A DNA stretch of 64,000 nt from an uncultured Chloroflexia bacterium (GTDB lineage Bacteria; Chloroflexota; Anaerolineae; Anaerolineales; UBA4823), in the NCBI GenBank assembly GCA_963774935.1, contig CAVZGO010000003.1:581426-645425 (forward strand), given 5' to 3'. This document shows positions 2,915-62,618 of this stretch, in pieces; positions within the stretch are counted from its first letter, which is position 1; every line of letters starts with the position of its first letter. A model generated the notes under the pieces. It saw only the letters and a list, made by a program, of their open reading frames with translations. It was not told where the DNA came from and made no database searches. A program made the translations under genes and the position numbers.

Positions 2915-3019
2915 TATTTGGGAAAGGAGGATAATCGTTCAGGAGAAGTTAAATTGTAAGACGATGTTGATAAGTTTGGATATGATTAACACAAATATTG
3001 ATTACTGAGGAGATGAACG

Positions 3020-4060: not shown

Positions 4061-4075
4061 TCGAATAACTGTCCA

Positions 4076-4107
4076 AGCGGGGGTTTTTCCACTGAAAAAC
4101 CCCCGCT
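4076..4107 (+). promoter_or_regulatory. Intercistronic stem-loop between binding-protein and ATPase genes
   Basis: Perfect 13-bp stem agcgggggttttt (4076..4088) / aaaaacccccgct (4095..4107) with a 6-nt loop and no U-tail. Its position right after the SBP stop suggests an mRNA-stabilising or attenuating hairpin. Confidence 0.6.
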
Positions 4108-4132
4108 CCTACCTCGAATTGGAGTCAGAGCT

Positions 4133-5674: not shown

Positions 5675-5819
5675 ACGAAATTAATTGAACAAAGTAAGCT
5701 TGAGAATAACTATGATGGTTTGGCGAAGTGAAAGGAGGTTGATCACCGCTATTAATTTATTTCCCAATCAGAAACTCTATTAACCAAATTTGAAAAAACA
5801 AATAAGGAGAATGTAGAAG

Positions 5820-7094: not shown

Positions 7095-7111
7095 TCCTGA
7101 TTCCACATGTT

Positions 7112-7135
7112 GGGGGAGGGCGAGAGCCTTCCCCC
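7112..7135 (+). promoter_or_regulatory. Intercistronic stem-loop after second binding-protein gene
   Basis: 10-bp stem gggggagggc (7112..7121) / gccttccccc (7126..7135) with one G-U pair and a GAGA tetraloop, followed by tttat. It ends 12 nt before the ATPase ATG. Confidence 0.5.
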
Positions 7136-7147
7136 TTTATCATCACC

Positions 7148-8611
7148 ATGAAAATTGAGCTTAGAGGCATCACAAAAACCTTCGGACGTGTCGTGGCAAA
7201 TAACGACATCCACCTCACGATTCCTGCCGGGTCAATTCAAGGAATATTGGGAGAGAATGGCGCCGGAAAAAGCACCCTGATGAAGGTTCTCTCAGGGTTT
7301 ATCCTGGCAGATAAAGGACAGATCCTTCTGGATGACCAGCCGGTGAGTATCGCATCCCCTGCAGATGCGATTCGAAACGGGGTTGGAATGCTTCACCAGG
7401 ATCCTTTGGATTTTCCGCCAATGAAAGTGATCGATAATTTCATCAATGGCAGCCAGGGTTCTCTATTTCCTAACCACAGCGCAATCACCAAGGCTTTCAA
7501 TGAGCTGCAAAACCAGTTTGATTTTTCCCTTGATCCAAAGGCATACGTCGATACACTGACCGTTGGCGAGCGACAACAACTGGAGATCTTGCGATTGCTC
7601 TGGCTGGGTGCTCGTGTGCTTATCCTGGATGAGCCCACTACAGGTATCAGCACAATGCAGAAAACCAAGCTCTTCTCTGCCCTGCGCCGGTTGGCAGAGC
7701 AAGGGAAATCCGTTATCTTTGTATCTCATAAACTCGAAGACGTTGAGCAGCTATGCAGCAGGGTGGCTGTACTTCGGCGAGGCCAACTGGTCGGCGAAAC
7801 CGAACCGCCATTTCTGATTTTCGACCTGGTACGGATGATGTTTGGTAAAGAAGTCAGTATGGGCGAGCGCTATGAGGTAGAGCCCGGTGAGCCCGTCCTG
7901 GATTTACACAACCTGGTAGTCGAAGATTATAAAATGCGCATTACCAGCCCAGATTTGCAAATCTGCCAGGGAGAAGTCGTCGGGATTGCCGGAATGGAAG
8001 GCAGCGGGCAGCAATTATTCCTGCGCGCCTGTTCTGGTCTGGTGCGACCGGTCAGCGGCAAAATTAACTTGAATGGAAAAGACCTGACAGGAAGCAATTA
8101 TCACGCCTTCATGCAGCATGGAGTAGCCTATGTCCCAGCCTCCCGCATGGATGAAGGCTTAATTCAAGGGCTATCGCTTTCTGAGCATTTTGTGCTGGCT
8201 GAGAAGCAGGAGCGTGTATTTATCGACTGGAAATCCACCCAGGAATTGGCGAGCAGCCGGATTGAAGAATACAATATTCGCGGCACACCTGCAACCCTGG
8301 TCGAAGACTTGTCCGGCGGTAATCAACAACGTGCTCTTTTAGCCCTGTTACGCATGCCACTTTCCTTGATTTTAATGGAACACCCAACGCGCGGCCTCGA
8401 CGTCGAGTCTTCGATTTACATCTGGAGTAAGCTGAAGGAACGCTGCAAGCAAGGCACCACGATTCTCTTCATTTCAGCCGACTTAGACGAAATATTACAA
8501 TACAGTGATCGTATCCTTGTATTTTTCGCGGGTCGTGTTACTGCTCCGCTCCCAGCTGCCAGCACTACGCTCGATCAGCTAGGCCAATATATCGGCGGTA
8601 AAGGTTTATGA
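7148..8611 (+). CDS. ABC transporter ATP-binding protein, duplicated ATPase (transporter 2)
   Basis: 487 aa. GENGAGKST, LTVGERQQLEI, VLILDEPT. Second half: GMEGSGQQ, LSGGNQQR, MEHPTRGLD. Confidence 0.9.
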   Translation: MKIELRGITKTFGRVVANNDIHLTIPAGSIQGILGENGAGKSTLMKVLSGFILADKGQILLDDQPVSIASPADAIRNGVGMLHQDPLDFPPMKVIDNFINGSQGSLFPNHSAITKAFNELQNQFDFSLDPKAYVDTLTVGERQQLEILRLLWLGARVLILDEPTTGISTMQKTKLFSALRRLAEQGKSVIFVSHKLEDVEQLCSRVAVLRRGQLVGETEPPFLIFDLVRMMFGKEVSMGERYEVEPGEPVLDLHNLVVEDYKMRITSPDLQICQGEVVGIAGMEGSGQQLFLRACSGLVRPVSGKINLNGKDLTGSNYHAFMQHGVAYVPASRMDEGLIQGLSLSEHFVLAEKQERVFIDWKSTQELASSRIEEYNIRGTPATLVEDLSGGNQQRALLALLRMPLSLILMEHPTRGLDVESSIYIWSKLKERCKQGTTILFISADLDEILQYSDRILVFFAGRVTAPLPAASTTLDQLGQYIGGKGL

Positions 8612-8659
8612 AGTCTAATAATATGCTCCGTTCACCGCATCAGCCGGATTGGAGGTGGA

Positions 8660-9703
8660 ATGCATAACGGAAAATCTACCTGGTTAAATATTGGCTTTCA
8701 ACTTGCTGCAGTTGCCGTTGCCATCCTCTTTACGACCATCATCCTTGTGCTCGCCGGAGCCCCACCCTTTAAGGCTTACGTGAATATTATTTTAGGGGCA
8801 TTTGGTTCATTTAAAAAATTCTCGGATGTATTGGTGGCGTTTGTCCCCTTAATGATTGTGACATCAGGTCTATTGGTCACATTTTCAGCGGGCTTGTGGA
8901 ATATCGGTATTGAGGGACAGATCACATTTGGTGCAATTTTTACCACCGGCACGCTGCGCATGCTGCAGGATAGCTCACTTTCTCCGGTATTAATTATCAT
9001 TCTATCTATCCTGGCAGGTATGCTGGGCGGAGCGCTTTGGGCTTCGCTGGCAGGCGCACTAAAAACCTATGGCGGGGTCAATGAGATATTCGGCGGATTG
9101 GGATTGAACTTTGTTGCTACTGCTTTTACATTGTGGCTTATCTTTGGCCCGTGGAAGCGTCCCGGGATCGGCTCGATGAGTGGAACCGAACCATTCCCGG
9201 AGACATTATGGCTGTCCACTCTGCCAGGTCTACGCTTGAGCATCTGGTCCATCATCCTGGCAATCCTTGGAATCGTTTTCGTTTATTTTCTCTTACAAGG
9301 CACATATTTCGGATTACAGCTTAAAGCTGTAGGGAAAAACATGCGCTCTGCTTTTATGCTCGGAATTCCAACCTCCCGCTATATGATGTCAGCATTCTTG
9401 ATTTGTGGCGCTTTCGCCGGATTAGCAGGCAGCATTCAAGTGGTTGCGATATATCATCGTCTAATCCCGTCTATCTCCAGCGGGTATGGCTTTCTAGGTC
9501 TGCTGGTGGCTATGTTGGTGAACTATCAAGCACTTTGGACCATCCCAATCGCTTTGTTCTTTGCTGTTCTAAACATTGGCAGCATTCAATTACCGATCGT
9601 CTTGAAACTGGACTCTGCACTTTCTGGTGTGCTCCAGGGCGCCCTGGTTCTATCTGTAATCATTATGGATGGCATCAGGCAGCGTTTCATCAAGAAGGAA
9701 TAG
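8660..9703 (+). CDS. ABC transporter permease (transporter 2)
   Basis: 347-aa polytopic ORF with GGAGGTGG RBS. Paralogous to 831..1982 (GLWNIGIEGQI motif). Confidence 0.85.
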   Translation: MHNGKSTWLNIGFQLAAVAVAILFTTIILVLAGAPPFKAYVNIILGAFGSFKKFSDVLVAFVPLMIVTSGLLVTFSAGLWNIGIEGQITFGAIFTTGTLRMLQDSSLSPVLIIILSILAGMLGGALWASLAGALKTYGGVNEIFGGLGLNFVATAFTLWLIFGPWKRPGIGSMSGTEPFPETLWLSTLPGLRLSIWSIILAILGIVFVYFLLQGTYFGLQLKAVGKNMRSAFMLGIPTSRYMMSAFLICGAFAGLAGSIQVVAIYHRLIPSISSGYGFLGLLVAMLVNYQALWTIPIALFFAVLNIGSIQLPIVLKLDSALSGVLQGALVLSVIIMDGIRQRFIKKE

Positions 9704-9713
9704 AGGTGACAGC

Positions 9714-10734
9714 ATGACAACCGAAACCATCATCATTGGATTGGCGGGAGTGTTGGCTGCTGCAGCACCTGTCATATTTGCTACCATCGGGGAAACGCTA
9801 TCTGAACGAGCTGGAGTAATCAACCTGTCCCTGAATGGCACCATATTGTTAGCTGCAATGAGCGGTTTTGCTGTGGCTGTGAAAACGGAGGACCTGCAAT
9901 TGGGCAGCATCAGCCTGTTATTGGGCTGCCTCACCGGTATGCTGGTAGGTGCACTGGTTGCCCTGGTGGTAGCTTTCGCCAGCATCACCCTGCACCAATC
10001 ACAGGTAGCTGTGGGCTTCGTCCTGGCATTGATGTGTCGCGACCTGGCATATTTCCTCGGCAATCCGATCATGGGTCTCGCCGGCCCACGCATTCCATCC
10101 TTCGCAATTCCTGGCCTGAGTCAAATACCGATCATTGGACCCTCTCCTGTTTCGCCAGGATATCTTAACTTATCTGAGCTATCTGGTTATCATCGCAGCC
10201 TGGGTGTGGATCTTTCGCACACGCGGTGGTCTGATTCTCCAGGGCATCGGGGAACGACCAGCAGCATCTTTCGTGCGAGGCGTCAATGTCAACCGCATGC
10301 GCTATTTTTATACCATCCTCGGAGGTGCACTGGCTGGTTTAGCAGGTCCTGTATACTCATTAAGCGTTAAAGCCGGCTGGAAAGGCACAATTTCAGGTTT
10401 GGATGGTATCGGTTGGATCGCGCTGGCCATCACCATCTTCGGGGGCTGGAATCCACTCCGCGCCGCCTTTGGCGCTTACCTGTTTGCGCTGTTACAATGG
10501 CTCGGTTTGGTTTTGCAACCCAGCTTACCAGGCATACCCTCTCAGGTATTACAGGTGGCGCCATTTCCGTTGATGATCCTGGCTTTACTGCTGGTGAATA
10601 TAGGCAACACCGAATGGATCGAGCGAATTCTGGCACAATTGCCAGATTCGACCCGCAGGTTGATCGGACGCATACTGCGCGCTTTGCGAGCAGCTCCACC
10701 CGCCTCCCTGGGCATACCGTTCGAACAAGAATAA
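9714..10734 (+). pseudogene. ABC transporter permease (transporter 2), frameshifted
   Basis: ATG 9714 with GAGGTG RBS. Frame 0 reads ...GLSQIPIIGP and then degenerates. Frame +1 (ORF 10135..10734) continues PLLFRQDILTYLSYLVIIAAWVWIF...GGWNP, colinear with paralog 1979..2914. The break is at the CCC run 10140..10142, an apparent extra C. Confidence 0.8.
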
Positions 10735-49332: not shown

Positions 49333-50916
49333 CTAACCTCTCCCTCTATTTAACTTCCCCCGCACGGCGTGGATAAGGCTGTTGACCTCCTGGGTCTTCA
49401 GCATAAATAATGATATTCCATACACTCCAGCACCCAGCAAAATACCTCCAAACACAATAACCCAATATGGGTAATTTATGCTGACCACCAGCCAGCCCCA
49501 AAGGGTAAGACTCATCGCCAGGGTCCCAACAACAGATTTGCTAGCTCCTTCAAATACAAATCGCTCCTCGATTCCGTTTAGCCGGCGATGCATCAGCACC
49601 CATAATCCGATCATTTCAAGAAATGTGGCGAGTGAATTGGCTAAAGCCAGTCCGCCAAACGGCATCCAGCCTATATTTGAAAAAGCTTTCGTGAAAACCA
49701 GGCTGAATGCCACGTTCAAGCTCATCGCCGCGATGCTTAACATCACCGGTGTTCGCGTATTATGCATGGCGTAAAAGGCCCGCGATAAAATCTCTACCAC
49801 CCCATGACCTAACAAACCTATGGTGAACCACAGAAGAGCCCAGCTCACCAGCTCGGTAGAATACTCATCGAAAGCACCTCGTTGCAGCAACATGGCAATA
49901 ATCGGTTCCCGCAGCAGGATCATCCCGGCGGTAGCAGGCAGCGACAGCAGAATCACGCCGCGCAGTGTAGCCGCCAGGCTTGAGCGCATCTCGCCTAATT
50001 CATTTCGCGCTACCTGAGCAGAGAAGGTTGGCAGAGCCGCGATGGCGATCGACTGCGCAATGACGACCTGGGGCATGGTCATAATCGCCCAGGCATACTT
50101 AATAGAAGCCAGGCTGCCCGGGTTCATGCCTGTTGCCAAAATGGTGTTGACTACAAAATTAATTTGTACTGCCGCCACCCCCAACAGGCGAGGAGCCATC
50201 AGGCGCCCAACTTCACGCGTTGCTGGCATGTTCAAGCCCAGGATGCGAAAATATTTTCTGCCTGCCAGCCGGAGGAGCGATGGAATCTGAATCCCCAGGT
50301 GCATGATTGCTCCCAATACATATCCCCATGCGAGACCGTAAATTCCAAGCGTGGGAGCAAAGAAAATCACTCCAATGATCATCCCGGTCCATAACATGCT
50401 CGGCGCCAAAGCTGGCCAGAGGTAATTATTGTGCGCGTTCAAAATCCCCATGATCAAGCCGCTAACCCCAAAGATAGTTGGCGCGATCAGCAGAATCCGC
50501 AACAAGGAAGCAGTCAATGCCTGCATTTCTGGGGGATAACTAGGAGCGAGGATGTACATTACGATCTGATCAGCCAGAAAGATGGAAACCAGGCTGAGCA
50601 GGCTGAGCGACAACATGACCAGGTTGACAATCGAAGATGCGAGGTGCCAGGCGCCATTCCGGTCTTGCCGCGTCAATAGACTCGTGAACATGGGGATGAA
50701 TGCCGAAGCCAGTGCTCCCCCTGCAACCAGGCTGAAAATCAAATCGGGATAGGTGGCTGCTGCATTGAATGCATCCAGCTCAGCCCCGGTGCCAAACGTA
50801 TTCGAAACCAACATCTGCCGGACCAGACCGACGATGTTGCTTAAAATAAAAGCAGACATCACTATACCAGCAGCATGGGCGATTTGGCGAGTGGCAGTTC
50901 CTGATGTCTGGCGCAT
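49333..50916 (-). CDS. murJ: Lipid II flippase MurJ (MviN family)
   Basis: About 527 aa from MRQTSG (the ORF extends to TTG 50961). N-terminal ...SNIVGLVRQMLVSNTFG and 14-TM MOP-superfamily architecture. Confidence 0.85.
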   Translation of the reverse strand: MRQTSGTATRQIAHAAGIVMSAFILSNIVGLVRQMLVSNTFGTGAELDAFNAAATYPDLIFSLVAGGALASAFIPMFTSLLTRQDRNGAWHLASSIVNLVMLSLSLLSLVSIFLADQIVMYILAPSYPPEMQALTASLLRILLIAPTIFGVSGLIMGILNAHNNYLWPALAPSMLWTGMIIGVIFFAPTLGIYGLAWGYVLGAIMHLGIQIPSLLRLAGRKYFRILGLNMPATREVGRLMAPRLLGVAAVQINFVVNTILATGMNPGSLASIKYAWAIMTMPQVVIAQSIAIAALPTFSAQVARNELGEMRSSLAATLRGVILLSLPATAGMILLREPIIAMLLQRGAFDEYSTELVSWALLWFTIGLLGHGVVEILSRAFYAMHNTRTPVMLSIAAMSLNVAFSLVFTKAFSNIGWMPFGGLALANSLATFLEMIGLWVLMHRRLNGIEERFVFEGASKSVVGTLAMSLTLWGWLVVSINYPYWVIVFGGILLGAGVYGISLFMLKTQEVNSLIHAVRGKLNRGRG

Positions 50917-50986
50917 ATAAGAATATTTTGACTGTAGTAGAATGTAATGGTAACGAAACAATTATATCGGGTAAAATCTCAATCCT

Positions 50987-51614: not shown

Positions 51615-51734
51615 GAGAAGAAGAGAAATCGCCCTTCAAGCATCATGATAACAGACCTATTTTAATTTCGCTTGACGATAAACCTACGATTACCCAACGA
51701 TTGCCCTACATTAATGGGACTCAAAAAGAAAACA

Positions 51735-52757
51735 ATGGAATATTCTATTCAAACCGAAAATTTGAGCCGAATTTATAAAATCCGCGGCGGTAAGAAAAAG
51801 GAAGCCAAGACCCTCCAGGCTCTCACCAACGTCGACTTGGAAATCCAGCCAGGTGAATTGTTCGGACTGCTGGGCCCAAATGGCGCCGGTAAAACCACAC
51901 TGATCAAAATTCTCACCACACTGCTCGCTCCAACTACCGGTTGGGCGCGTGTCGCCGGTTTCGATGTGTCTACTGAGGCGCCAAAGGTTCGGCAGCGGAT
52001 TAATATGGTCTCGGGTGGTGAATCCTCGGGCTACGGCTTGCTCACCGTGCGAGAGAATTTGTGGATGTTCTCCCAGTTCTATGGCATATCATCCGATGTA
52101 GCGAACCAGCGAATCAAGGAGCTGCTTCAAATTGTTGGGTTGCAGGACCGGGCCAACACCAAATCATCGGATCTGTCCACCGGATTACGTCAAAAAATGA
52201 ATATCGTGCGCGGCTTCCTCACAGATCCTGATGTGCTGTTCCTGGATGAGCCGACCTTAGGATTGGATGTGGGTGCTTCTCGTGAAGTGCGTAAGTTCGT
52301 TCGTCACTGGGTAGATCAAAATCAGTCACGCACCCTCCTGCTTACCACCCATTACATGGTAGAAGCAGACGAGTTATGCGACCGGGTAGCCATCATTAAC
52401 CAGGGCAAAGTCTTAGCCTGTGATACACCTACGAATCTTAAACGGCGTCTGCAGCAGGAAGCAATTTACCGACTGGAGGTCAACCATACCGATGATTCGA
52501 TCGACGGCAGACTTGGGAGTCTACCCGGTGTCCGGCAGGCGACACACTCGGTATATGACGGCTACGCTCTTCTTGAGATGATCCTGGAAAATGACAGCGT
52601 GCTGAGCTCGGTGGTCAACACTCTCACGACTCAAAACATGAAACTCTTGAATTTGCAGAAGCGCGAGCCAACCCTGGAGGATGTTTTCGTCGACCTGGTT
52701 GGTCGCAGTATGGAAGAGGTGGAACGCTCCACAGCTCCCGAGGAAGATGCACCATGA
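51735..52757 (+). CDS. ABC-2-type exporter ATP-binding protein (DrrA-like)
   Basis: About 340 aa from MEYSIQ (alternative starts at 51714 and 51672). GPNGAGKTT, LSTGLRQKMNI, VLFLDEPTLGLD, plus a C-terminal accessory domain. Confidence 0.85.
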   Translation: MEYSIQTENLSRIYKIRGGKKKEAKTLQALTNVDLEIQPGELFGLLGPNGAGKTTLIKILTTLLAPTTGWARVAGFDVSTEAPKVRQRINMVSGGESSGYGLLTVRENLWMFSQFYGISSDVANQRIKELLQIVGLQDRANTKSSDLSTGLRQKMNIVRGFLTDPDVLFLDEPTLGLDVGASREVRKFVRHWVDQNQSRTLLLTTHYMVEADELCDRVAIINQGKVLACDTPTNLKRRLQQEAIYRLEVNHTDDSIDGRLGSLPGVRQATHSVYDGYALLEMILENDSVLSSVVNTLTTQNMKLLNLQKREPTLEDVFVDLVGRSMEEVERSTAPEEDAP

Positions 52758-53596
52758 TCCTGGAACAGCATGTTCATAAAAATACCGGCTGGAAACTCTT
52801 TTTCCAAACGGTCATCGCTCGGGCATACCCGCGCGTTATCGGTCAGCAGCGAGAAAAATCCTGGATGTTTTTTGAAATATTTCTGCCAATGCTCACCGTT
52901 TCTGCGTATGTGTTTGTTTATCGCGCCATCGGAGCTGATCCTGAATATGTCGGTTTCGTCGTGATGGGCGGCGCGATGACTGCTTTCTGGATGAACGTGC
53001 TGTGGAGTATGTCCAGCCAGCTATATTGGGAAAAAGAGCAGGGCAACCTTGCATTATATATCATGGCTCCAAACTCAATGATGGCTATTCTATTGGGTAT
53101 GGCATTAGGCGGATTGTTTGCCACCACCTTACGCGCCTTGGTAATCCTCATCCTGGGTAGCTGGGTTTTCAAAGTGCAATATGCAGTTGGAGAATTTTGG
53201 CAACTCTTTGCGGTTTTCATCCTCACTATGATCGCGCTGTACGGCTTAGGTATGATGTCGGCGTCGATTTATCTCTTGCTTAGCCGCGAAGCCTGGCATA
53301 TCAGCAGTTTGATGCAGGAACCAGTTTTCCTTGTGTCGGGTTTCTACTTCCCAATCAAGAACTTAAATTTTTGGGTGGCGATGGGTGCATCAATCATTCC
53401 CCTCACCCTGGGGTTGGATGCCATGCGCCAGCTCAGCTTCCCCTCCGGAGCATCGATCGGGTTCTTGTCGGTGCCAGTTGAGGTTGCCATCCTGGCAGGT
53501 CTCAGTATTGCATTCATTACGGGTGCCTACTTTCTCCTGGCTTACGTAGAGCGCCTGGCGATTCGTGAAGGCCGGTTGACGGAAAGTCGCCGGTGA
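52754..53596 (+). CDS. ABC-2-type transporter permease
   Basis: 280 aa, 6 TM helices, 4-nt overlap with the ATPase gene. Confidence 0.75.
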   Translation: MILEQHVHKNTGWKLFFQTVIARAYPRVIGQQREKSWMFFEIFLPMLTVSAYVFVYRAIGADPEYVGFVVMGGAMTAFWMNVLWSMSSQLYWEKEQGNLALYIMAPNSMMAILLGMALGGLFATTLRALVILILGSWVFKVQYAVGEFWQLFAVFILTMIALYGLGMMSASIYLLLSREAWHISSLMQEPVFLVSGFYFPIKNLNFWVAMGASIIPLTLGLDAMRQLSFPSGASIGFLSVPVEVAILAGLSIAFITGAYFLLAYVERLAIREGRLTESRR

Positions 53597-54492
53597 TTGG
53601 AATAAAATCGATGAGCTCATTGACTACCAATTTCGCGGACAACGTTTCCACCCACTGGCGATCATTTCGTATGGCAGCCTGGCTGGGCTGGCAGATAGAA
53701 TCAAACTGGGCTGACCCATTCCTTTTCGCCATTTACTCATTGGTAAAGCCGCTGGCAGGGGCATTTATCCTGGTGGTGATGTATGGCGTTATCACCGACG
53801 GCGACTACAACTCCCCGATGTTCACCTATATTTTCGTCGGCAACGCTTTTTACATCTATGTTGGTCAAATAATGAATGGCATATCCTGGTCGGTTGTCGA
53901 CGACCGTGAGCATTACAAAACACTCAAGTACATTTATACTGCTCCCGTCCGCTATCCATCTTACCTGGTCGGCAGAGGCGTTGCCCAATTCATCATTGCC
54001 ACAATCTCCGTGACCATCACACTTGTAATCGGCGTGGCATTTCTGCATGTAGCAATTGATCCAATGCAAGTAGACTGGCTGTTGTTTTTGGTCACGATGC
54101 TGATCGGGATTGTCATGCTGGTCTCAATGGGGTTAATTCTTGCGGGCATGATGCTCCTCCTCGCTCATCATGTTTGGGATCTTGGCGCGGCGATTGCTGG
54201 AGGCATGTTCCTCTTCAGCGGGGCTGTGTTTCCTCTCGAAGTCCTGCCCCCATTCTTGCGCTGGATTGGATATCTGCTGCCAATCACATACTGGCTCGAG
54301 CTGATCCGCCGTGCCCTCATCGGTACCACCGCCGAAGTCTATCCCACACTGGCTAATCTCAGCAACCTGCAGCTATTCGGCATCCTGGTTGGATTAACCC
54401 TGGTCACGATGATCATCGCCTCGATTAGTTTTCGCTCATGTGAGCAAAAAGCTAAGGATCGAGGCATGATTGATATGGTGACAAATTATTAG
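53593..54492 (+). CDS. ABC-2-type transporter permease (second subunit)
   Basis: 299 aa, 6 TM helices, 4-nt overlap with the upstream permease. Confidence 0.75.
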   Translation: MIGIKSMSSLTTNFADNVSTHWRSFRMAAWLGWQIESNWADPFLFAIYSLVKPLAGAFILVVMYGVITDGDYNSPMFTYIFVGNAFYIYVGQIMNGISWSVVDDREHYKTLKYIYTAPVRYPSYLVGRGVAQFIIATISVTITLVIGVAFLHVAIDPMQVDWLLFLVTMLIGIVMLVSMGLILAGMMLLLAHHVWDLGAAIAGGMFLFSGAVFPLEVLPPFLRWIGYLLPITYWLELIRRALIGTTAEVYPTLANLSNLQLFGILVGLTLVTMIIASISFRSCEQKAKDRGMIDMVTNY

Positions 54493-54563: not shown

Positions 54564-55133
54564 ATGTCTGTGAAAAACGGCGCGACCATTTTCTTTTCCC
54601 AACTGGTAACGGAGCAGCTTGGCCTGATTTGGATTGCAGCATCTGCAAATGGATTGGTTGAAATCGGATTTGACGATACTGCCGATGCATTTTGCCAGCG
54701 GATCACGCACCGGTTAAACCTTGATCATTCGCCAACTCCTGTTGAACAGCATTCTTCTCAACCTATTCATCCTGCGATTAAGGTTCTTGAAGAAACGAAA
54801 CGCCAGCTTCTAGCTTATCTGGATGGTGATCTGGCAGATTTTAATTTACCTTTGGATTTGACCGGAATGCCTGCATTCCAAGAGCAGGTCCTGCGTGCCA
54901 CAAGCGACGTACCTGCAGATCAAACAAAGACATATCAGCAACTGGCAATTGAAATCGGTAATCCGTCTGCCGCGCGAGCAGTCGGGCGGGCAGAGGCGAC
55001 AAATCCGATTCCGCTGGTCATTCCATGCCATCGAATCGTTGGCAGCGATGGCAGTCTGAGGGGTTACGGCGGTCGTGGTGGAATTAATACAAAAGCCTGG
55101 CTGTTAAAATTAGAAAAAGGAAATCATGAATAA
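54564..55133 (+). CDS. ogt: Methylated-DNA--protein-cysteine methyltransferase
   Basis: 189 aa. Active site IPCHRIV, TYQQLA helix-turn-helix, NPIPLVIP. Confidence 0.9.
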   Translation: MSVKNGATIFFSQLVTEQLGLIWIAASANGLVEIGFDDTADAFCQRITHRLNLDHSPTPVEQHSSQPIHPAIKVLEETKRQLLAYLDGDLADFNLPLDLTGMPAFQEQVLRATSDVPADQTKTYQQLAIEIGNPSAARAVGRAEATNPIPLVIPCHRIVGSDGSLRGYGGRGGINTKAWLLKLEKGNHE

Positions 55134-55779
55134 TTCACTTCTTGATCATGTCACAACCCAACAACAAACAATATTAAAAAGCCTGAAAACTCCTGTCGCA
55201 ATCCAGGCATATTTAGACCAGGTGCCGTACAGCACCGAAGACACCAATCGCTCGCCTGTACAGGTGATGCAGGATCAGGTCGCTCACTGCCTGGACGGTG
55301 CTCTTTTCGCGGCTGCTGCACTGCGAGAAATCGGCTTTCCGCCTTTGTTAATCGACATGTTCCCCGAGCCAGGTCGTGATGACGATCATGTGCTGGCGCT
55401 TTTCAAGATGAATGGCCATTTCGGCGCCCTGGCTAAATCTAACTTCCCCGGTCTGCGCATGCGTGAGCCCATCTACCGAAGCATCCGTGAGCTGGTGCTC
55501 AGCTACTTTGAGGATTTCTTCAACCAGGATGGCGAAAAAACACTACGCACCTACACACGAATGCTTCACCTGGAACAATTCGACGCGTTGGGATGGACAT
55601 GGAACAGCACCGGCGTCAATACGATCGAACGCAGATTGCTATCAATGAAACGGACACCGTTGATCACAAGCGCTATGGCAGCCCAGCTATCTCCCGTAGA
55701 CGCCCTAACCTATCAATCCGGTATGGTGGGGGTCAACCCCTCTGGGCTTTACAAACCAGGCAAATCTACACACCACTAA
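55126..55779 (+). CDS. Hypothetical protein with papain/transglutaminase-like Cys...His pattern
   Basis: 217 aa with an 8-nt overlap onto the ogt stop. AHCLDGALFAAAALREIGF followed by DDDHVLALF resembles the Cys-His core of transglutaminase/NAT-like folds. This is a weak, motif-only call. Confidence 0.45.
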   Translation: MNNSLLDHVTTQQQTILKSLKTPVAIQAYLDQVPYSTEDTNRSPVQVMQDQVAHCLDGALFAAAALREIGFPPLLIDMFPEPGRDDDHVLALFKMNGHFGALAKSNFPGLRMREPIYRSIRELVLSYFEDFFNQDGEKTLRTYTRMLHLEQFDALGWTWNSTGVNTIERRLLSMKRTPLITSAMAAQLSPVDALTYQSGMVGVNPSGLYKPGKSTHH

Positions 55780-55903: not shown

Positions 55904-58900
55904 ATGGTTAAAAGTAATTCACTGGCTGGTAAGGAACGAAGCTGGATACTGCTCGATAAGCTTGGAGAAGGAGATGCAGGCGAGGTCTACCTTGTTGAGT
56001 CAATGCTTGACCAACAGCGAGCCATCCTGAAGCGTCCCCGTTCAAGCGCCTTTTCCAGCGATGTCATTCGCCAGGCTTCTCAAATCGGAACCGAAGCACA
56101 GGTCCTGCTAAAACTTACCGGGATGGTGCGTCCGAAAGTCGAAAAAGGCGTAAAAATCGACCTGCATACTCCGCGTTTGCTCGATCATAGCCCGGCAGGC
56201 AGTGAGTTCAGCGACCGCTTCTTCATTGTTATGGAACAAGCCAGCGGATTCGATCTCACTCTGCTCGAACGAGTATCCCGGTTTGGCATGCCTGAGGAAT
56301 TGAACCTGCCAAGGAGTGAGCTGGCAATGTTGAGCGGGATTGCCCAAAAAGGTGAATTTCCCCGCCTGGTTCTGTTACGTGTATTAGCCGCTGTATTACA
56401 GCTATTTGAGCAGATCCACCCCACAGCACCTACGACTGAAGGAACCGGTCAATCCGGTGTGCTTTGGAATGATGTAAAACCGGATCATATATTTTGGGAT
56501 CCAAACATCGACCGAATTACGATCATCGATTGGGGAAACGCCCAGTTTCTCGAACCGGATGGCAGTACCAAAGACCGCCGACTCTCACGGACAGAGGATT
56601 ACAACCAATTTATCGAAACATTCGGTACGTTGTTAGCAAACAATGCACCTGAACTGAGCACACTTATTAAATGGCCTGTATCGGGTAAAACCTATCTTTC
56701 CAAAAGTGATTTGATCAAATCGCTGCGCGTGGCGATCTTGAAGCAGCTTACCCAAGACTTTCAGGCATTACAAAAAACCCGGCAAACGGAGCAGGCATTA
56801 AGCCATCTGAAGCAACCTGCCCTGGAAGATCTTAAAAAGCTCTTAGAGATACAAAAAGAAATCGCAAATTTCGGTGAAGTGCCTAATTACACCGGATCAG
56901 AGCTTTTTTGCAACCAGCTCGCCTCCCGCCTGGCTGCAAGTGGTAATCTGGATGAATTAATCCAGCTTTGCCAGATTTCATGCCCACTTCAATCAGGTAG
57001 TTCAACAAAGTGGAAAATAATCAACCAGATTGCTGAAATTGCAAAAGAAACCGGCAACCAATCACCTGGCTCCTCCGCCAGCCCACCGTTCATAAACGCG
57101 CTTTCTGCAGTCATCGTGGATGACTGGCCTACGGTGATGTGGGAGCTCCTGGATGCCACTCGCAACGATCCGGAGCCAGATTGGTGGTATGAGCTGACGA
57201 ATGCGATTCGCCTGGCTGGTCTCAATCCAACCGCTGAACAACTCCCCCCGCTGGTTGCTCTGCGCCGGACGGTTCTTTCGATGCAGGCAACTGCACAGAA
57301 GTTGAGAGACAAAAAAGCATCTGTTCAGGAGGCTGATTCAGCATGGCAAACCGAATTGACCGACGAAGAGCTGGCATCCTCTGAGGCTCTGGTGAGCCAG
57401 CTAAAAATGGTTACGACTCGCTGGGATGAAGTTGACCCTGATCCACCATACTCGGATCTGCGATACCGTGATTTGTTAGAATTGATGGAAGCCATTCGCA
57501 ATCAGCTCCCAGGTGCGTTTCAATCATTATCGAAATCGCTAGAACAACCGGATACTCAGGCAAGAACAATCCTGGATGCCTGGTCTGAGCGCGACTTTTT
57601 ACGCGCCCGGCAAGGATTAAGGTGGCTGCTATTATGGGATCCAGACCGACGGCGGGTTCTGCTCGCAGACCGTGCAATCTACACGACACCTGCGTGGTTG
57701 TCTGCACTTCAAAAAGGGCCCCAAAATGGTCAGACAATCCAGGAATTTGCCACCGCCCAGGAATTCACCGGTAGGGAGCTGCGTCAGCAGGTCGGTCCTG
57801 CGGAATGGTTGGATGCCATCTTGACCGGTTTATCTCAACTTCGGAAAAACCGGCGTGTGGGTGAGCTTCTATCAGAAGTGCCCGACATCGGGAAAGAGAT
57901 GCCATGGCTGGAAGCCATGGAGCCGCGAAAATACACGCCGCCTTCTCAAGCTCCTAAGCGGATACCCATGGAACGTTTATCCGGCGATCAACCAGCCCAA
58001 CCTTTCATTACCGGTGTGCAATCGGCAATGTTTGGAGCTGGTCAAGACGTGCTTTTAGCTGATCCGCTGGACATTTGGGCACCTGAAGCACGTGGATCAT
58101 CTGCCCGCACATTTAACGGTTTCCTGCGCGTTCCAGGTGGGCAGGTTAAACAAATGGCTGTCAAACTCATGCGCCCCGACCGTCTGGATTACGCGCTTCC
58201 CCTATTTCGAGAAGAAGCACTGGTTTTAACATTGATGCGGGATGTCCCTGGCATTACACCCCTGCTTGAGTGTGGATTTCTCCAATTAGACAAGAACTCG
58301 CAAATCCCCCCTGATAACCGTCCTCTGGGCGGGCGCGAACTGACTGGCTCGATCGAGCGATATAGCCCAGACGAGGTTCAAAGTTTCCTCTCAGTCCTTG
58401 AAAATCGCTCACATCAGGACTGGATTCCCTATCTGATAACCCCCAAGCGGGATCACCAGGAAAATCTGATGTGGCTTTGTGATTCCGGTTACACGCGCGG
58501 CCGCTTCTTACCGGTCGAAGAAGCTATCCGCATGGCTATACAAATCTGTGACATTCTGGAAATCGCCCACTTGCGAAACATCGTTTATCGCGACCACAAG
58601 CTGCTCCACTATTATTGGAGCGAGTTGTATAATGGCATTTTCATGATCGATTGGAATGTTGCGCGTTACCATCCCCAGGGACTCTCCCAGGCAGAAATCC
58701 AATTCGATCTGGTTCAGCTTGGTGCGCGGGCTATCCACCATATTTTTACCGGTCGAGTTGCTCCAGGAGCTCTTGCGGACGGACCGAACCGGGTAGAAGA
58801 AATCGAGAAAGCCGATCAAAGCTACAAAGTGATGTGGACCTACGATGACCAGAGACTTCCACCTGAGCTGAAAGAAATATTGGAACAGCTGCTGACCAGT

Positions 58901-59008
58901 GGATACTCTCGAGCCAGCCAGCTTCGTCAGGATTTGGAACAGGTATACACCAACCTGTTCGATGAAGAAGAATTGGTAACAACAAAGGAAGACAATGAGC
59001 CGAGTTGA
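55904..59008 (+). CDS. Large cytoplasmic protein with two atypical protein-kinase-like domains
   Basis: 1034 aa. Domain 1: LGEGDAGEVYLV, AILKRP, WNDVKPDHIFW, IIDWGNAQF. Domain 2: MAVKLMRPD, VYRDHKLLHYYW, MIDWNVARY. Both show D-x-K-x-x-H and 19-residue spacing to the (I)DW motif. A helical region of about 480 aa lies between them. Confidence 0.7.
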   Translation: MVKSNSLAGKERSWILLDKLGEGDAGEVYLVESMLDQQRAILKRPRSSAFSSDVIRQASQIGTEAQVLLKLTGMVRPKVEKGVKIDLHTPRLLDHSPAGSEFSDRFFIVMEQASGFDLTLLERVSRFGMPEELNLPRSELAMLSGIAQKGEFPRLVLLRVLAAVLQLFEQIHPTAPTTEGTGQSGVLWNDVKPDHIFWDPNIDRITIIDWGNAQFLEPDGSTKDRRLSRTEDYNQFIETFGTLLANNAPELSTLIKWPVSGKTYLSKSDLIKSLRVAILKQLTQDFQALQKTRQTEQALSHLKQPALEDLKKLLEIQKEIANFGEVPNYTGSELFCNQLASRLAASGNLDELIQLCQISCPLQSGSSTKWKIINQIAEIAKETGNQSPGSSASPPFINALSAVIVDDWPTVMWELLDATRNDPEPDWWYELTNAIRLAGLNPTAEQLPPLVALRRTVLSMQATAQKLRDKKASVQEADSAWQTELTDEELASSEALVSQLKMVTTRWDEVDPDPPYSDLRYRDLLELMEAIRNQLPGAFQSLSKSLEQPDTQARTILDAWSERDFLRARQGLRWLLLWDPDRRRVLLADRAIYTTPAWLSALQKGPQNGQTIQEFATAQEFTGRELRQQVGPAEWLDAILTGLSQLRKNRRVGELLSEVPDIGKEMPWLEAMEPRKYTPPSQAPKRIPMERLSGDQPAQPFITGVQSAMFGAGQDVLLADPLDIWAPEARGSSARTFNGFLRVPGGQVKQMAVKLMRPDRLDYALPLFREEALVLTLMRDVPGITPLLECGFLQLDKNSQIPPDNRPLGGRELTGSIERYSPDEVQSFLSVLENRSHQDWIPYLITPKRDHQENLMWLCDSGYTRGRFLPVEEAIRMAIQICDILEIAHLRNIVYRDHKLLHYYWSELYNGIFMIDWNVARYHPQGLSQAEIQFDLVQLGARAIHHIFTGRVAPGALADGPNRVEEIEKADQSYKVMWTYDDQRLPPELKEILEQLLTSGYSRASQLRQDLEQVYTNLFDEEELVTTKEDNEPS

Positions 59009-60771
59009 TCTCTTTGAAAGTAAAGTGAACGAAATGTTAATCCAGGGCTCACCTCCCATGGCGGAGATGCGTCGCTTGATGCTCGAGATAGATGATTTTA
59101 TTCATGCACCGGAATTCGAAAACCTGAGCCTGGATGAACGCAGCCGTTTACAGACCATTCGAAAAGATTTAAAAAACCAAATTCGCCAGGCAGAGGATTC
59201 TGAGGAATCCAACCTGGCGGGGAGCCCTTCTACTGGAGAGGTTGCAAGCGACGCCTGGTCAGGCAGCGCGAGCAGCACGCCCAACACAACTCAAGGGGGG
59301 GCTGCACCTGAGCTCCGCGGGCATAATCCAACCGCTGAAGAGTCGATGGAGACCGCCGAAAAAGCGTTTTACAGCGGTCGCTTCTCTGAAGCGATAAAAC
59401 TTTACGATCGAGTCCTGCAAATCGAGCCCAATTGGGAGCGCGCCCGCCAGCACCGTACGGAGGCGGATAATTACCTGCGCACCGGGTATATTCCCTCCGT
59501 GGCTCTCCCAGCAGACGCCGCCTCTGCTTTTGGCAAAGCTCAATCCGCCGCCCGTGTGGGGCGCTACCAGGATGCGCTGACGCTTGTTATTGAAAGCCCA
59601 ATCGACCTTGCGCGATTTAGGCATCCAGCGCTGGCAGGAAGGTCAGGAGTTTGAGCAGAAACTGCAGGAAAATATTGACGCTGAGAATGCTTACCAGGAC
59701 GGCTTGAAGTTATTTCGAGCTGGACAGGTAGATGAAGCCATCGATGCTGTAGATACGGCGTACCGAGCTACCGGTCTTCCCAAATATGCCGATCGCGCCC
59801 AGGGGATGCGGAAGTTTAAAGAAACGATCCGCTCGATCAATGATACGCTGAATTCAGCCGGCATTGAGCCCAAGCTGCTGGTGCAATCCAAGCTCGAACT
59901 GGACAACCTCTCCAATGAATTTGGCGAAAATCCCGCTCTACAGCGGCTGCGCGCACGCTTCGAGAATGCGATTCCGCGCATTGTGACACCTCTTAAAGAC
60001 CAGGCGCGTGAGCTCAAATCTCAGGCAGAACGCAGCGTGACGATCGAGGAGACACTTTTCCTGGCGCGCCAGTCGAAACAGCAGCTCGACCAGATCCGCA
60101 GTTTAGAGGGGATGGATGACAGTTTGGATCGACTGAATAATGAGGTCGATAAGCTGATCCGTGAAACCCAGCGGCTGGCTGATGAGCTGGCAACCGCAAA
60201 CACATCCTATTTGAACCACCCCAACTGGCCGGTGGAGGCATTTAAAACGAGCGCTGAAGCTCGCCAGAAGTTCCCCAACGATCCGGGCGTGGTGGCAATG
60301 CGGAAATCGCTTTCACGTTATCGCAACATCCGCTTTGGGCTGCGCATGCTTGGTGTAATTGGAGTGATCTTATTGCTTTCCCTGCTCGGTTGGGCTGCCA
60401 GCAACGGTTTTAAATCTTTCATGCTGTCACGCACCCCTACACCCACCCTGACACCTACCCAAACTGCAACTCTCACTCCGACCACTACCAGCACCCCTAC
60501 AGTCACACCGACAATCACACCGACGGCGACCGCTACTCTAACCCCAACACCGACTGCTGGCATTGCCTTAAGAGATGTTTGGGCGCGTTCTGGCTGCTAC
60601 GAGACATTTAATGCTGTCGGTCGTATTCCCGCTGAAGGACCGGTGCGATTCTTACCCTCCGAACGGCGCTTCGATGACTTTAACCGGGAATGTGTGCTGG
60701 TTGAATACCGCGGACCCGATAAATCTGTGATCGGGTGGGTGCTCATCTCCGACCTGGGCGGATTGAAGTAG
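58995..60771 (+). pseudogene. TPR/coiled-coil single-pass membrane protein with Thr/Pro linker and small C-terminal SH3-like domain, frameshifted
   Basis: ATG 58995 overlaps the kinase stop by 14 nt. ORF 58995..59654 (TPR-like AEKAFYSGRFSEAIKLYDRVLQIEPNW) switches by +1 at about 59581..59595 into ORF 59584..60771 (...DALTL/LLKAQSTLRDLG). The TM helix is LGVIGVILLLSLLGWAA, followed by a TPTPT linker. Confidence 0.6.
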
Positions 60772-60845: not shown

Positions 60846-62618
60846 TTAATCAGATTTCCAAACTTCCAAAGTGTTGGTGAGATAACCCTCTCGACAGGCG
60901 TGGCGCTGGATTTTTCCGCTGGAGGTTTTCATCAAGCTGCCTGGCTTCAGGAGTACGATGTCGTCAACATGCAGGTCGTGCTGGCTGGTTATAGCATTCC
61001 GGATCGCTGCCAAAACAGAATCGGGGTTGATATCCACACCCTGTTCTTGTTGTAATAACGTCAATTGCCGCTGCTTTGCCATCTCGACAACCACAACCAA
61101 TCGCTCCTGTCCTCGCCTGTCGACAGAAAATGCCGCACTGCAACCCGGGCGTAAGGCGGGATGGCAATTCTCAACCGTCAGCTCAATGTCTTGGGGGTAG
61201 TGATTGAGACCATCGATGATAATTAAATCCTTGCTGCGACCTGTTATATACAGATCTCCTCTGGACAGGAATCCCAGATCGCCAGTGCGCAAATATCGCT
61301 GCGCTGGTTGCCCATCTAGGTGAGCAAAGAAGGTTCGCTGGCTTTCTTCCGGGCGTCCCCAATAACCCTGGGCGATACTTTCGCCACTTACCCAAATTTC
61401 TCCTACCCGGGTATTGCCACGCCGGTCCGGCTTGCACTCCCGGAATGTATCCGGCTCAACAATCACTATTTTCTGCTCCAGCCAGGTCTGCCCGCATCCC
61501 ACCAGCAGGCGAGAGTCAAGATCGTCATCACCAGTCTCTTCCACCTGATCTTGGGTGAGCGCATCTGTCTTTACGCGTAAGGTCCTGACTCCAGACATCC
61601 TTTTCCTGCTTGAGACGAGCAGCGTTGCTTCTGCCAATCCATAACAGGGGTACATCGCTTTGGCATCAAAACCACACGGAGCAAATACCTGGGCAAATCG
61701 ATGCAATGTTTCAGGGCGGACTGGCTCGGCGCCATTGACAGCAATTTGCCAGCAGCTTAAATCCAATGACGCGATCTGCTCGGGGGTGGCTTTACGGGCA
61801 CACAGGTCATAGGCAAAATTCGGCCCGCCACTGACGGTAGCCCGCAAATGGGAGATTGCCCTTAACCAGCGCATCGGTCGTTGGAGAAAATCTAAAGGAG
61901 ACATCAGTGTAGTAGTTATGCTGTTGTATACAGTACCCAATATCGCACCAATCAAGCCCATGTCATGGTATAGCGGCAACCAGAACATTCCCCGGTCAGA
62001 ATCCGCGTTTAAGTCAAAGGCGCGCGTGATAACTTCCAGGTTGTAACTCAGGTTTTGGTGGGTTAACATGACCCCCTTGGGCTCAGCAGTCGAGCCAGAA
62101 GTATATTGCAGAAAAGCCAGTTGATCCGGTTTTAAATCAGGCTCAATCCAGTTGGACCCATCCGGTTCTACCAGAAGCTGGTCGGTTGCCACCCACTGCA
62201 TCGCTGGCATCCCCGGATATTGAGTTAAAATCATCTGCGCCATTGCCATGATCGGTGATGTAGTAAGGATCACTTTCGGGTCAGCGCTCTTTACAATGGC
62301 GAGAAAGCGCGGGAGCGAGCGCTCCATGCGCATCACGTCCGGGGGATAAGCTGGAACGGCAACAACGCCAGCATATAAACACCCGAAAAATGCACTGACA
62401 TAATCTAAGCCGGGGGGATAGAGCAGCAGTGCACGATCACCCGGGGATTCAATGCTTTGAAGTAAGGTTGCCAGTTTCTTGGCGTGCTGGTTTAATTGCT
62501 GGTAGCTTAACCGAGCAGTGGCTTCTTCCCCATCCACCAAAAATTCTAATGCTGTACGCTCGGGAATATGAGCGGCGTGCTCTTGCAGCCGCGTGACAAG
62601 AGAGTTAAAGCTGGGCAT
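60846..62618 (-). CDS. Fatty acyl-AMP ligase (FAAL-type adenylate-forming enzyme)
   Basis: 590 aa. YTSGSTAEPKGVMLTHQNL, YLRTGDLGF, SSGKIQR. The N-terminus and length match FadD32-like FAALs. Confidence 0.8.
   Translation of the reverse strand: MPSFNSLVTRLQEHAAHIPERTALEFLVDGEEATARLSYQQLNQHAKKLATLLQSIESPGDRALLLYPPGLDYVSAFFGCLYAGVVAVPAYPPDVMRMERSLPRFLAIVKSADPKVILTTSPIMAMAQMILTQYPGMPAMQWVATDQLLVEPDGSNWIEPDLKPDQLAFLQYTSGSTAEPKGVMLTHQNLSYNLEVITRAFDLNADSDRGMFWLPLYHDMGLIGAILGTVYNSITTTLMSPLDFLQRPMRWLRAISHLRATVSGGPNFAYDLCARKATPEQIASLDLSCWQIAVNGAEPVRPETLHRFAQVFAPCGFDAKAMYPCYGLAEATLLVSSRKRMSGVRTLRVKTDALTQDQVEETGDDDLDSRLLVGCGQTWLEQKIVIVEPDTFRECKPDRRGNTRVGEIWVSGESIAQGYWGRPEESQRTFFAHLDGQPAQRYLRTGDLGFLSRGDLYITGRSKDLIIIDGLNHYPQDIELTVENCHPALRPGCSAAFSVDRRGQERLVVVVEMAKQRQLTLLQQEQGVDINPDSVLAAIRNAITSQHDLHVDDIVLLKPGSLMKTSSGKIQRHACREGYLTNTLEVWKSD

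Follow-up and report, generated by a model that had tools for sequence, protein, structure and literature searches.

A two-kinase protein and its membrane partner as a candidate split receptor kinase module of Chloroflexota

Introduction

Whether a bacterial receptor kinase can be divided between two polypeptides, one with the sensor and the membrane anchor and the other with two kinase domains, is the question raised by a pair of adjacent genes in the genome of an uncultured Chloroflexia bacterium of the order Anaerolineales (GenBank assembly GCA_963774935.1). The pair occupies positions 55904-60771 of a 64,000-nucleotide (nt) stretch of contig CAVZGO010000003.1, the whole of which was analysed and is referred to below as the window. 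A first-pass annotation, made from the letters of the sequence, had noticed two kinase-like domains of unusual motifs in the 1034-amino acid (aa) product of the first gene and a membrane partner encoded by the second, and had read the two as a split receptor-plus-kinase signalling module. Results of our analysis leave us about evenly balanced on the view that this gene pair is a Chloroflexota-specific signalling module in which a receptor kinase is divided between two polypeptides. Anaerolineae are abundant, mostly uncultured filamentous bacteria of sludge, sediments, and soils, and we know of hardly any studies of their signalling.

Results

Kinase domains of the 1034-aa protein

The presence of two kinase-like domains in the 1034-aa protein is borne out by profile, hhalign, and Foldseek evidence, and in separate searches each of the domains matches kinases. 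A search of 5.8 billion proteins returned more than 300 homologues of the whole protein; among the 120 matches listed, nearly all are about 1000 aa long and 42-54% identical to it over the full length. Names are rare among them: JGI uses 'serine/threonine protein kinase' and NCBI 'hypothetical protein', the named NCBI sources being metagenome-assembled genomes (MAGs) of Anaerolineales. Many of the homologues carry a precomputed PF00069 annotation. The protein is predicted to be cytosolic, with no transmembrane (TM) helix and no hydrophobic window.

The N-terminal kinase domain (N-domain) matches Pfam Pkinase (PF00069) with an E-value of 2.4e-7 and 30.9 bits, just below the gathering cut-off of 31.7. 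The best match of its profile in the PDB is CK2alpha (E 2e-7), and its hhalign comparison with the PknB kinase domain gives a probability of 94.4% (E 8.6e-8). Pfam Pkinase matches the C-terminal kinase domains (C-domains) weakly, in eight of 14 members and with E-values of 0.004 or above, and gives no match to the C-domain of the window itself. The profile of this domain has 22 matches below E 0.1 in the PDB, all of them kinases (best E 5e-4), and aligns with PknB at 93.4% probability (E 2.4e-7) over the C-lobe, with helix E, the catalytic loop, the DW motif, and helices F to I. The PknB sequence used in these hhalign comparisons agrees with the PknB fragments among the PDB matches of the C-domain. 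An AlphaFold2 model of the full-length protein, built from a 63-sequence alignment, has a mean predicted local distance difference test score (pLDDT) of 90 and a predicted template modelling score (pTM) of 0.62. Its Foldseek comparison with the PDB yields more than 1400 matches at E <= 1e-3, and all 50 of those listed are protein kinases, PknB among them with a template modelling score (TMt) of 0.71. The model, taken together with the separate hhalign probabilities of 93-94% per domain, thus points to the bilobal kinase fold.

Conservation of the motifs was assessed in an alignment of 119 sequences, comprising the window protein and 118 full-length homologues. The Hanks residues beta3 Lys, helix-C Glu, catalytic Asp and Lys, and the Asp equivalent to that of DFG are kept in all 119 sequences in both domains. 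In the N-domain, the Gly-rich loop is G21-E-G-D-A-G26 (G21xGxxG26), the beta3 Lys is K43, and the helix-C Glu is E64; in the C-domain, the relevant elements are the G731-S-S-A-R loop (G731SSAR), K754, and E770/E771. The unusual motifs that drew attention to this protein stand where they had been reported, namely, NDVKPDH from residue 189, IDWGN from 208, RDHKLLH from 896, and IDWNV from 915, with a spacing of 19 residues in both domains (Asp190 to Asp209 and Asp897 to Asp916). The loop of the N-domain follows the pattern W-N-D190-x-K192-x-x-H195 and that of the C-domain Y-R-D897-H-K899-x-x-H902. Both the His and the DW variants are present in all 119 sequences in both domains, so that the position of the metal-binding Asn of Hanks kinases is taken by an invariant His (His195 and His902). 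The replacement of DFG, regarded as atypical, is conserved as well, but DWG, though rare, is not unprecedented, since it is found in CK2alpha. Since the Lys, Glu, Asp, Lys, His, and Asp residues are invariant in both domains, the motifs are not a product of chance, and the catalytic residues of both domains are under strict selection.

Neither domain has a full activation segment ending in APE. The distance from D209 to Asp232 of helix F in the N-domain is 23 residues and that from D916 to D935 in the C-domain is 19 residues, which makes these segments about 23 residues shorter than that of PknB. The NCBIfam model PknB_PASTA_kin scores the kinase protein at 15.4 bits against a cut-off of 450, and no PASTA repeat was matched by Pfam.

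The kinase domains are separated not by a helical region of about 480 aa, as first proposed, but by about 415 aa of helices (residues 259-673) and a low-confidence linker of about 30 aa, in which the mean pLDDT of 10-residue blocks is 52-75 over residues 671-700. The helical domain contains many invariant Trp, Pro, and Arg residues; its profile matches no Pfam family and has no meaningful sequence match in the PDB. The equal spacing of the motifs had been taken to argue for an internal duplication, which our results do not uphold: the profiles of the two domains match each other at 52% probability (E 1.5e-4, 67 columns), each matches PknB better, and the two halves are separate neighbouring genes in other Chloroflexota. 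Both domains have the derived features DW, H-x-[FY]-W behind the catalytic Lys, and a D-x-x-Q of helix F, and a common origin of the domains is possible.

Constant linkage of the kinase gene to the partner gene

To examine the linkage of the two genes, each GTDB species was represented by one genome, and scanning of these genomes yielded 31 loci, one per genome; all record titles are of Chloroflexota, mostly Anaerolineae-type MAGs, among them a relative of the culturable Anaerolinea thermophila (L024). In all 30 loci that have DNA beyond the kinase gene, of 35 loci in all, the partner gene lies directly downstream on the same strand; the remaining five stop at or inside the kinase gene. The two genes are thus always adjacent, and of the two observations that would have refuted the first-pass reading, no kinase-fold match for either domain and homologues that are never neighbours, neither was made. 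Pairwise identities of the kinases and those of the partners correlate with r = 0.97 over 16 loci, with means of 52% for the partner and 43% for the kinase, and this, with the presence of one locus in each of the 31 genomes, is consistent with the inheritance of the pair as a unit.

The overlap between the two genes in the window is 14 nt long: the partner begins with an ATG at 58995, the kinase ends with a stop codon at 59006-59008, and AAGGAAG stands just upstream of the ATG. Translational coupling, proposed from this overlap, can be kept for the window and its close relatives: the overlap is 4 nt in the locus designated L001, and the genes of the other loci examined are mostly separated by gaps of about 10-135 nt. 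As the spacing varies among loci, the 14-nt overlap is a local detail.

Partner protein

The partner is not encoded by one open reading frame (ORF) in the window but by two, in different frames (58995-59654, 219 aa, and 59584-60771, 395 aa). A locus 97.4% identical to that of the window (L004, ENA ERZ25039459) lacks the C at 59583, and deletion of this base from the window sequence gives one 591-aa protein, which is colinear with the 591-aa orthologue of L001. L004 has indels of its own, one of which splits the kinase gene and one of which shortens the end of the partner. Between the window and L004 there are four single-base gap positions at three sites (59583, 57600, and 60650-60651) within 6 kb. 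Each gap site breaks a different gene, namely, the partner in the window and the kinase and the partner end in L004. Because L004 carries its own indels elsewhere and each of the two assemblies is thus disturbed at sites of its own, the extra C is more likely to stem from an assembly error than to mark a pseudogene or a real mutation, and the pattern of single-base gaps suggests consensus errors in the assemblies.

A search with the repaired partner gave more than 750 homologues, which are about 590 aa long (identity 54-72%) and named at JGI as tetratricopeptide repeat (TPR) proteins. Apart from its division between two frames, the layout described for it at first holds, with the TPR segment and TM helix, a linker of Thr and Pro, and the C-terminal domain all in place. 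A conserved N-terminal helix is followed by a variable Ser/Thr-rich stretch (residues ~70-110), TPR, a helical region, the TM helix, a stalk, and an ectodomain. Pfam TPR_2 matches residues 121-146 with 27.7 bits, above the cut-off of 27.0, and consensus-TPR structures in the PDB match residues 110-152 and 212-252. The TM helix is preceded by an Arg/Lys cluster, on which grounds, by the positive-inside rule, the N-terminus of the partner would be cytoplasmic and its C-terminus outside. Thr and Pro make up 69% of residues 487-522, a low-complexity stretch that is kept in homologues.

The ectodomain has an invariant Cys534 and a Cys566 that is invariant or nearly so in the homologue alignments. 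Its AlphaFold2 model (60 sequences) has seven strands, with pLDDT of 92.9 and pTM of 0.80. The best PDB neighbours of this model in Foldseek are the SH3b domains of Clostridium perfringens CPF_0587, NlpC/P60 endopeptidases, and phiSM101 endolysin, followed by eukaryotic SH3 domains; the top matches have template modelling scores (TMq) of 0.58-0.70 and probabilities near 1. The predicted structure is thus suggestive of an SH3-like fold, the level at which the original suggestion may be kept, and not of family membership.

Split-gene and single-chain relatives

A phmmer search with the C-domain against 1.84 billion cluster representatives (E <= 1e-3) returned only 161 proteins, and the C-type kinases are therefore a small, isolated lineage. 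Many of these are stand-alone relatives of 312-345 aa, which have D-H-K-x-x-H plus DWN in 87 of 88 cases, with the DWN spacing of 19 in 84 of the 88. Pfam annotates none of them, and where NCBI names a source, which is seldom, it is a MAG of Chloroflexota or of Anaerolineales/Anaerolineaceae. In three independent loci (L040, L041, and L043; see Table 1), the gene order is a big N-kinase protein, a small C-type kinase, and an orthologue of the partner, which in each case has the same ectodomain, borne on a Thr/Pro linker after the TM helix. When the first ~600-630 aa of the big proteins are compared to residues 1-679 of the window kinase, the match extends to residue ~676-679, and the small kinase matches from residue 705. 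The break point is thus the low-confidence linker of the window protein (residues 674-704), and the middle helical domain travels with the N-kinase. Since the two kinase halves are separate adjacent genes elsewhere, the window gene is a fusion of two neighbouring kinase genes, or else the split forms are fissions, and the conserved unit consists of three modules, namely, the N-kinase with the helical domain, the C-kinase, and the partner.

The big proteins of L040 (1931-6004) and L041 (1552-5913) have a TM helix of their own and an extracytoplasmic region of 400-470 aa, to which Pfam gives no match; the 926-aa big protein of L043 is without a TM helix.

Further variants come from a Chloroflexota MAG (L039) and two metagenome proteins. 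In the protein designated P0366 and in that encoded at 2699-4690 of L039, a kinase of this lineage shares one chain with TPR-like helices, followed by a TM helix and then, past a Thr/Pro linker, by a small beta domain with IGWIL at its end. The P0366 kinase aligns with the C-domain profile at 98.5% hhalign probability (E 2e-15). Another relative, P0357, has the kinase, TPR-like helices, and TM helix only, and P0319 is a version with a duplicated kinase. When the partner was aligned with what follows the kinase in single-chain proteins, an hhalign probability of 95% was rejected as driven largely by the low-complexity linker.

L039, a locus of a Chloroflexota groundwater MAG, contains at 889-10313 a cluster of paralogous receptor-like genes. 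In addition to the single-chain kinase-TPR-TM-linker-beta-domain protein, it encodes an N-type kinase with a TM helix and an ectodomain, in which the catalytic-loop Lys is lost, as well as TPR-TIR, duplicated-kinase-TPR-TM, and TPR-TM proteins. More distant stand-alone relatives of 370-420 aa (P0314, P0317, P0324, P0333, and P0345) have a helical C-terminal extension that ends in Ile/Leu-Pro after Arg-Val, Arg-Ile, or Arg-Ala (...RVIP, ...RILP).

Genome neighbourhood and coordinates of features

Apart from the partner gene, the surroundings of the kinase gene differ from locus to locus. Clustering of ORFs from 33 loci revealed as recurring neighbours only the genes of MurJ, MGMT, and exonuclease VII (ExoVII), in about one third of the loci. 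We treat this recurrence as synteny of one sub-lineage and at most a weak hint of a link to the cell wall. The MurJ gene of the window is 5 kb upstream of the kinase gene, and in about 10 of about 30 loci, including distant ones (kinase 35-44% identical), MurJ is encoded no farther than 6 kb from the kinase; in L033, it is downstream of the partner. The genes of an ABC-2-type exporter lie between those of MurJ and MGMT and are common to the window, L003, L004, and L037.

The 217-aa gene directly upstream of the kinase overlaps the end of the MGMT gene by 8 nt, and its product has a weak match to the transglutaminase core (E 8.6e-4, below the cut-off). The gene is present in five loci at 56-97% identity, two of which are copies of the same contig as L001, and it is outside the conserved module. 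A gene of an AMP-binding enzyme converges with the partner gene at a distance of 75 nt; no terminator-like site was found between the two, and a scan for promoters and terminators gave nothing above the shuffled expectation. No mobile-element genes flank the pair in the window, and its neighbours there are housekeeping genes.

Table 1. Features of the two-gene system and neighbouring genes in the window, and components of the split-gene relatives.
Feature	Positions	Strand	Residues or length	Remarks
Gene of the two-kinase protein	55904-59008	+	1034 aa	ORF
N-terminal kinase domain	55928-56677	+	~9-258	Pfam, PDB profile, hhalign
N-domain catalytic loop N-D-V-K-P-D-H	56468-56488	+	189-195	N, D, K, H invariant (119/119)
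N-domain I-D-W-G-N, DFG equivalent	56525-56539	+	208-212	D, W, N invariant; aligns to CK2alpha IDWG
All-helical middle domain	56678-57922	+	259-673 (~415 aa)	~20 helices, high pLDDT
Low-confidence linker	57923-58015	+	674-704 (~30 aa)	
C-terminal kinase domain	58016-58993	+	705-1030	helices F-I kept
C-domain catalytic loop Y-R-D-H-K-L-L-H	58586-58609	+	895-902	Y, R, D, H, K, H invariant (119/119)
C-domain I-D-W-N, DFG equivalent	58646-58657	+	915-918	D, W, N invariant
Partner gene	58995-60771	+	591 aa once repaired	interrupted by +1 frameshift in the window
Extra C breaking the partner frame	59583-59583	+		gap vs. L004; conserved protein continues in other frame
Partner TPR region	59322-59751	+	~110-252	predicted cytoplasmic; Pfam TPR_2
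Partner helical, coiled-coil-like region	59803-60315	+	~270-440	predicted cytoplasmic; sequence reading and weak coiled-coil-type matches
Partner single TM helix	60334-60402	+	447-469	Kyte-Doolittle maximum 2.21
Thr/Pro-rich stalk	60427-60558	+	478-521	predicted extracytoplasmic
SH3-like ectodomain	60559-60768	+	522-591 (70 aa)	AlphaFold2 and Foldseek
MurJ lipid II flippase gene	49333-50961	-		
ABC-2-type exporter	51672-54492	+		ATPase and two permeases
Upstream gene	55126-55779	+	217 aa	
AMP-binding enzyme	60846-62618	-	590 aa	DIP2-like C-terminal domain, fatty-acyl-AMP-ligase-like
L040 big protein			1357 aa	N-part 30% identical to window kinase, E 5e-64
L040 small C-type kinase			315 aa	41% identical to window residues 705-1011
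L040 partner orthologue			582 aa	35% identical
L041 big protein			1453 aa	N-part 29% identical to window kinase, E 1e-66
L041 small C-type kinase			344 aa	33% identical
L041 partner orthologue			598 aa	34% identical
L043 big protein			926 aa	N-part 27% identical to window kinase, E 5e-52
L043 small C-type kinase			338 aa	40% identical
L043 partner orthologue			605 aa	38% identical

Discussion

The reading of the gene pair as a split receptor-plus-kinase, put forward in the first-pass annotation, gains from the adjacency of the two genes and from the single-chain relatives of the same kinase type and layout, the existence of which makes it much more plausible. In such a module, the partner would be anchored in the membrane and would display its SH3b-like domain, a likely ligand- or wall-binding element, on the Thr/Pro stalk to the cell-wall compartment. 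The cytoplasmic TPR/coiled-coil part of the partner would be a likely docking platform that recruits the two-kinase protein, and in the latter the helical middle domain would hold both divergent Hanks-type kinase domains together in one soluble chain. Because a regulatable activation loop is missing and the DW motif is of CK2 type, the kinases may be expected to be controlled by docking, clustering, or oligomerisation on the partner rather than by activation-loop phosphorylation. The invariance of the catalytic residues argues that both domains would transfer phosphate, and the substitution of His for Asn hints at a changed metal site, which may favour Mn2+. We infer in this way the interaction of the two proteins, their catalytic activity and metal preference, the sensing of the wall or of a ligand, the substrates, and the biological role.

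Several observations weigh against this reading. The Foldseek matches of the full-length kinase model are not assigned to one or the other kinase domain. The Foldseek E-values of the ectodomain are 0.04-0.3, with none at or below 1e-3, and searches of Pfam and the PDB with 19 sequences of this domain, and with their profile, found no relative by sequence, SH3 families included. In the loci examined, no conserved gene of an FHA-domain protein or a PP2C phosphatase lies near the pair. The post-kinase parts of the single-chain proteins, once the Thr/Pro linker is left out, match the partner with hhalign probabilities of 2-18%, and therefore these proteins count as architectural and not as homology evidence. 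The pseudokinase STRADalpha also has His in place of the metal-binding Asn, so the activity of the kinase domains is not guaranteed, and activation segments of 19-23 residues without APE resemble those of RIO/Bud32-type and small-molecule kinases.

The last two points are also the basis of an alternative that we consider unlikely, yet the strongest of the competing ones, in which the kinase folds would serve as nucleotide-driven switches or pseudokinase scaffolds that organise a membrane complex with the partner, such as ATP-binding or ATPase modules of RIO/Bud32 type or ATP-binding pseudokinases of STRADalpha type. The altered metal site and the short activation segments of both domains fit it, as do the position of the N-domain just under the Pfam Pkinase cut-off, the failure of the same model to recognise the C-domain, the lack of Pfam annotation on the stand-alone C-type relatives, and the loss of the catalytic-loop Lys in one L039 paralogue. 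Degenerate pseudokinases, however, normally lose some of the residues of catalysis, whereas here the Lys of beta3, the Glu of helix C, the Asp and Lys of the catalytic loop, and the Asp of DW are invariant in both domains across the alignment and are kept even at 27-40% identity. Somewhat less probable still is that the partner is mainly a substrate, or an envelope or division scaffold under kinase control, with the SH3b-like domain as its anchor in peptidoglycan. The partner is indeed better conserved than the kinase (52% vs. 43%), its cytoplasmic part includes a long coiled coil and, at ~70-110, a variable stretch rich in Ser and Thr, SH3b domains of wall hydrolases bind the wall, and MurJ is encoded within 6 kb in about one third of loci, distant ones included. 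Most loci, however, show no MurJ linkage, which may be inherited synteny, the partner has no significant match to known division proteins, and this possibility overlaps the split-receptor reading rather than excluding it.

That the two domains phosphorylate a small molecule, a lipid, or a glycan (e.g., an envelope precursor) in the manner of aminoglycoside or choline kinases, the partner being responsible for membrane positioning, seems to us improbable. Besides the short activation segments without a P+1/APE region, it draws on a weak match of residues 159-214 to Pfam APH (PF01636; E 1.5e-4, 22.1 bits over 56 residues), which is below the cut-off of 23.2, and on the precomputed PF01636 annotation of some homologues. 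However, both catalytic loops have the form D-x-K-x-x-(H), with the Lys that is characteristic of protein Ser/Thr kinases and is not known from the APH and choline-kinase families; the C-domain retains the protein-kinase helices F to I, and the nearest neighbours in sequence and fold, CK2, PknB, and CK1, are protein kinases. A kinase-based system for defence against phages, or a mobile accessory system of another kind, is barely credible and was rejected: the PADLOC matches to PD-T4-6 and mad6 that suggested it are partial and span only generic kinase segments (866-899 and 11-223), and the NCBIfam MAD6 model scores 12.4 bits against a cut-off of 460. A TPR-TIR gene does adjoin the related cluster in L039, but the pair in the window has housekeeping surroundings free of mobile-element genes, and its one-per-genome occurrence and the co-variation of its components across Chloroflexota also speak against such a role.

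The split-receptor reading can be carried further by analogy. The three modules would then form a bacterial counterpart of a receptor-associated tandem kinase of JAK type, with two active kinases in which the metal site relies on His and the DW motif is locked. Docking or oligomerisation driven by the partner would switch them in place of activation-loop phosphorylation, and the complex would sense the condition of the wall or of adjacent cells in the filamentous Anaerolineae. We regard this extension as doubtful. If it were true, it would mean a new regulatory logic for bacterial Ser/Thr kinases in a lineage-specific, 'dark' kinase family.

On sequence grounds, the kinases appear to form a family that is specific to one lineage and for the most part lacks annotation, that has an obligate partner, and that exists in split and fused forms. 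The C-type kinase domain is largely missed by standard annotation, and NCBI sources name the protein hypothetical. The metal-binding Asn and the activation loop are usually held essential by kinase enzymologists, and the family therefore offers a natural test of kinase chemistry, in which this Asn is replaced with His and the activation loop is truncated with the other catalytic residues fixed. The occurrence of split, half-fused, and fully fused forms in one phylum illustrates how receptor kinases can assemble from separate parts. No publication describing a bacterial tandem kinase like that of the window was found, and the main text of the 2025 atlas of bacterial Ser/Thr kinases does not contain the terms 'tandem', 'two kinase', 'Anaerolin', or 'DWG'.

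Among known systems, the receptor kinases PknB/PrkC have in common with the window pair the kinase fold, the catalytic Lys, Glu, Asp, Lys, and Asp residues, and, in overall logic, a cytoplasmic kinase tied via one TM helix to a wall-facing ectodomain. In the window pair, however, the putative sensor and the kinase are on separate chains and there are two kinase domains, with His for Asn, DWG/DWN for DFG, and a truncated activation loop without APE. Moreover, its ectodomain is predicted to be SH3-like and not of PASTA type, and its C-domain is unrecognised by Pfam. In the PknG-GlnX-GlnH system, a soluble kinase reads an extracytoplasmic signal via a membrane partner (PMC8546545). Like that of the window, the gene of this kinase adjoins a gene of a membrane protein proposed to relay the signal, and docking involves TPR (PMC8546545). 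The TPR of PknG is, however, on the kinase itself and sensing is performed by a separate lipoprotein, whereas in the window system both the TPR and the ectodomain are on the membrane partner; no homology is seen beyond the kinase fold, and no gene of an FHA substrate lies nearby. The window system belongs to neither of these two families, as PASTA repeats, a TM helix in the kinase, and features of PknG are absent from it; from the textbook Hanks features it departs in the metal-binding Asn and in the activation segment with APE, and it agrees with the rest.

Among the sequences of the PDB, none matches the N-domain better than CK2alpha; both have the DWG variant, the Trp of which in CK2 helps to lock the active DFG-in state. 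The match is limited to the Gly-loop and to the segment from the catalytic loop to DWG, and CK2 keeps HRD...N and a full activation segment; the kinase protein of the window is not a CK2 orthologue. The SH3b wall-binding domains of NlpC/P60 proteins, endolysins, and CPF_0587 are the nearest structural neighbours of the ectodomain and, like it, extracytoplasmic. Unlike these, the ectodomain has a conserved Cys pair and no sequence similarity to them, and it is a part of a signalling-type membrane protein and not of a hydrolase.

Tandem-kinase proteins of eukaryotes include JAKs on cytokine receptors, RSK/MSK, and plant tandem kinases. The pairing of a cytosolic two-kinase protein with a single-pass receptor chain is the feature that the window system has in common with the JAK type. 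The resemblance is purely one of design, with no specific relationship in sequence between the two, and in the window system both kinase domains look catalytically complete and can be encoded by separate genes.

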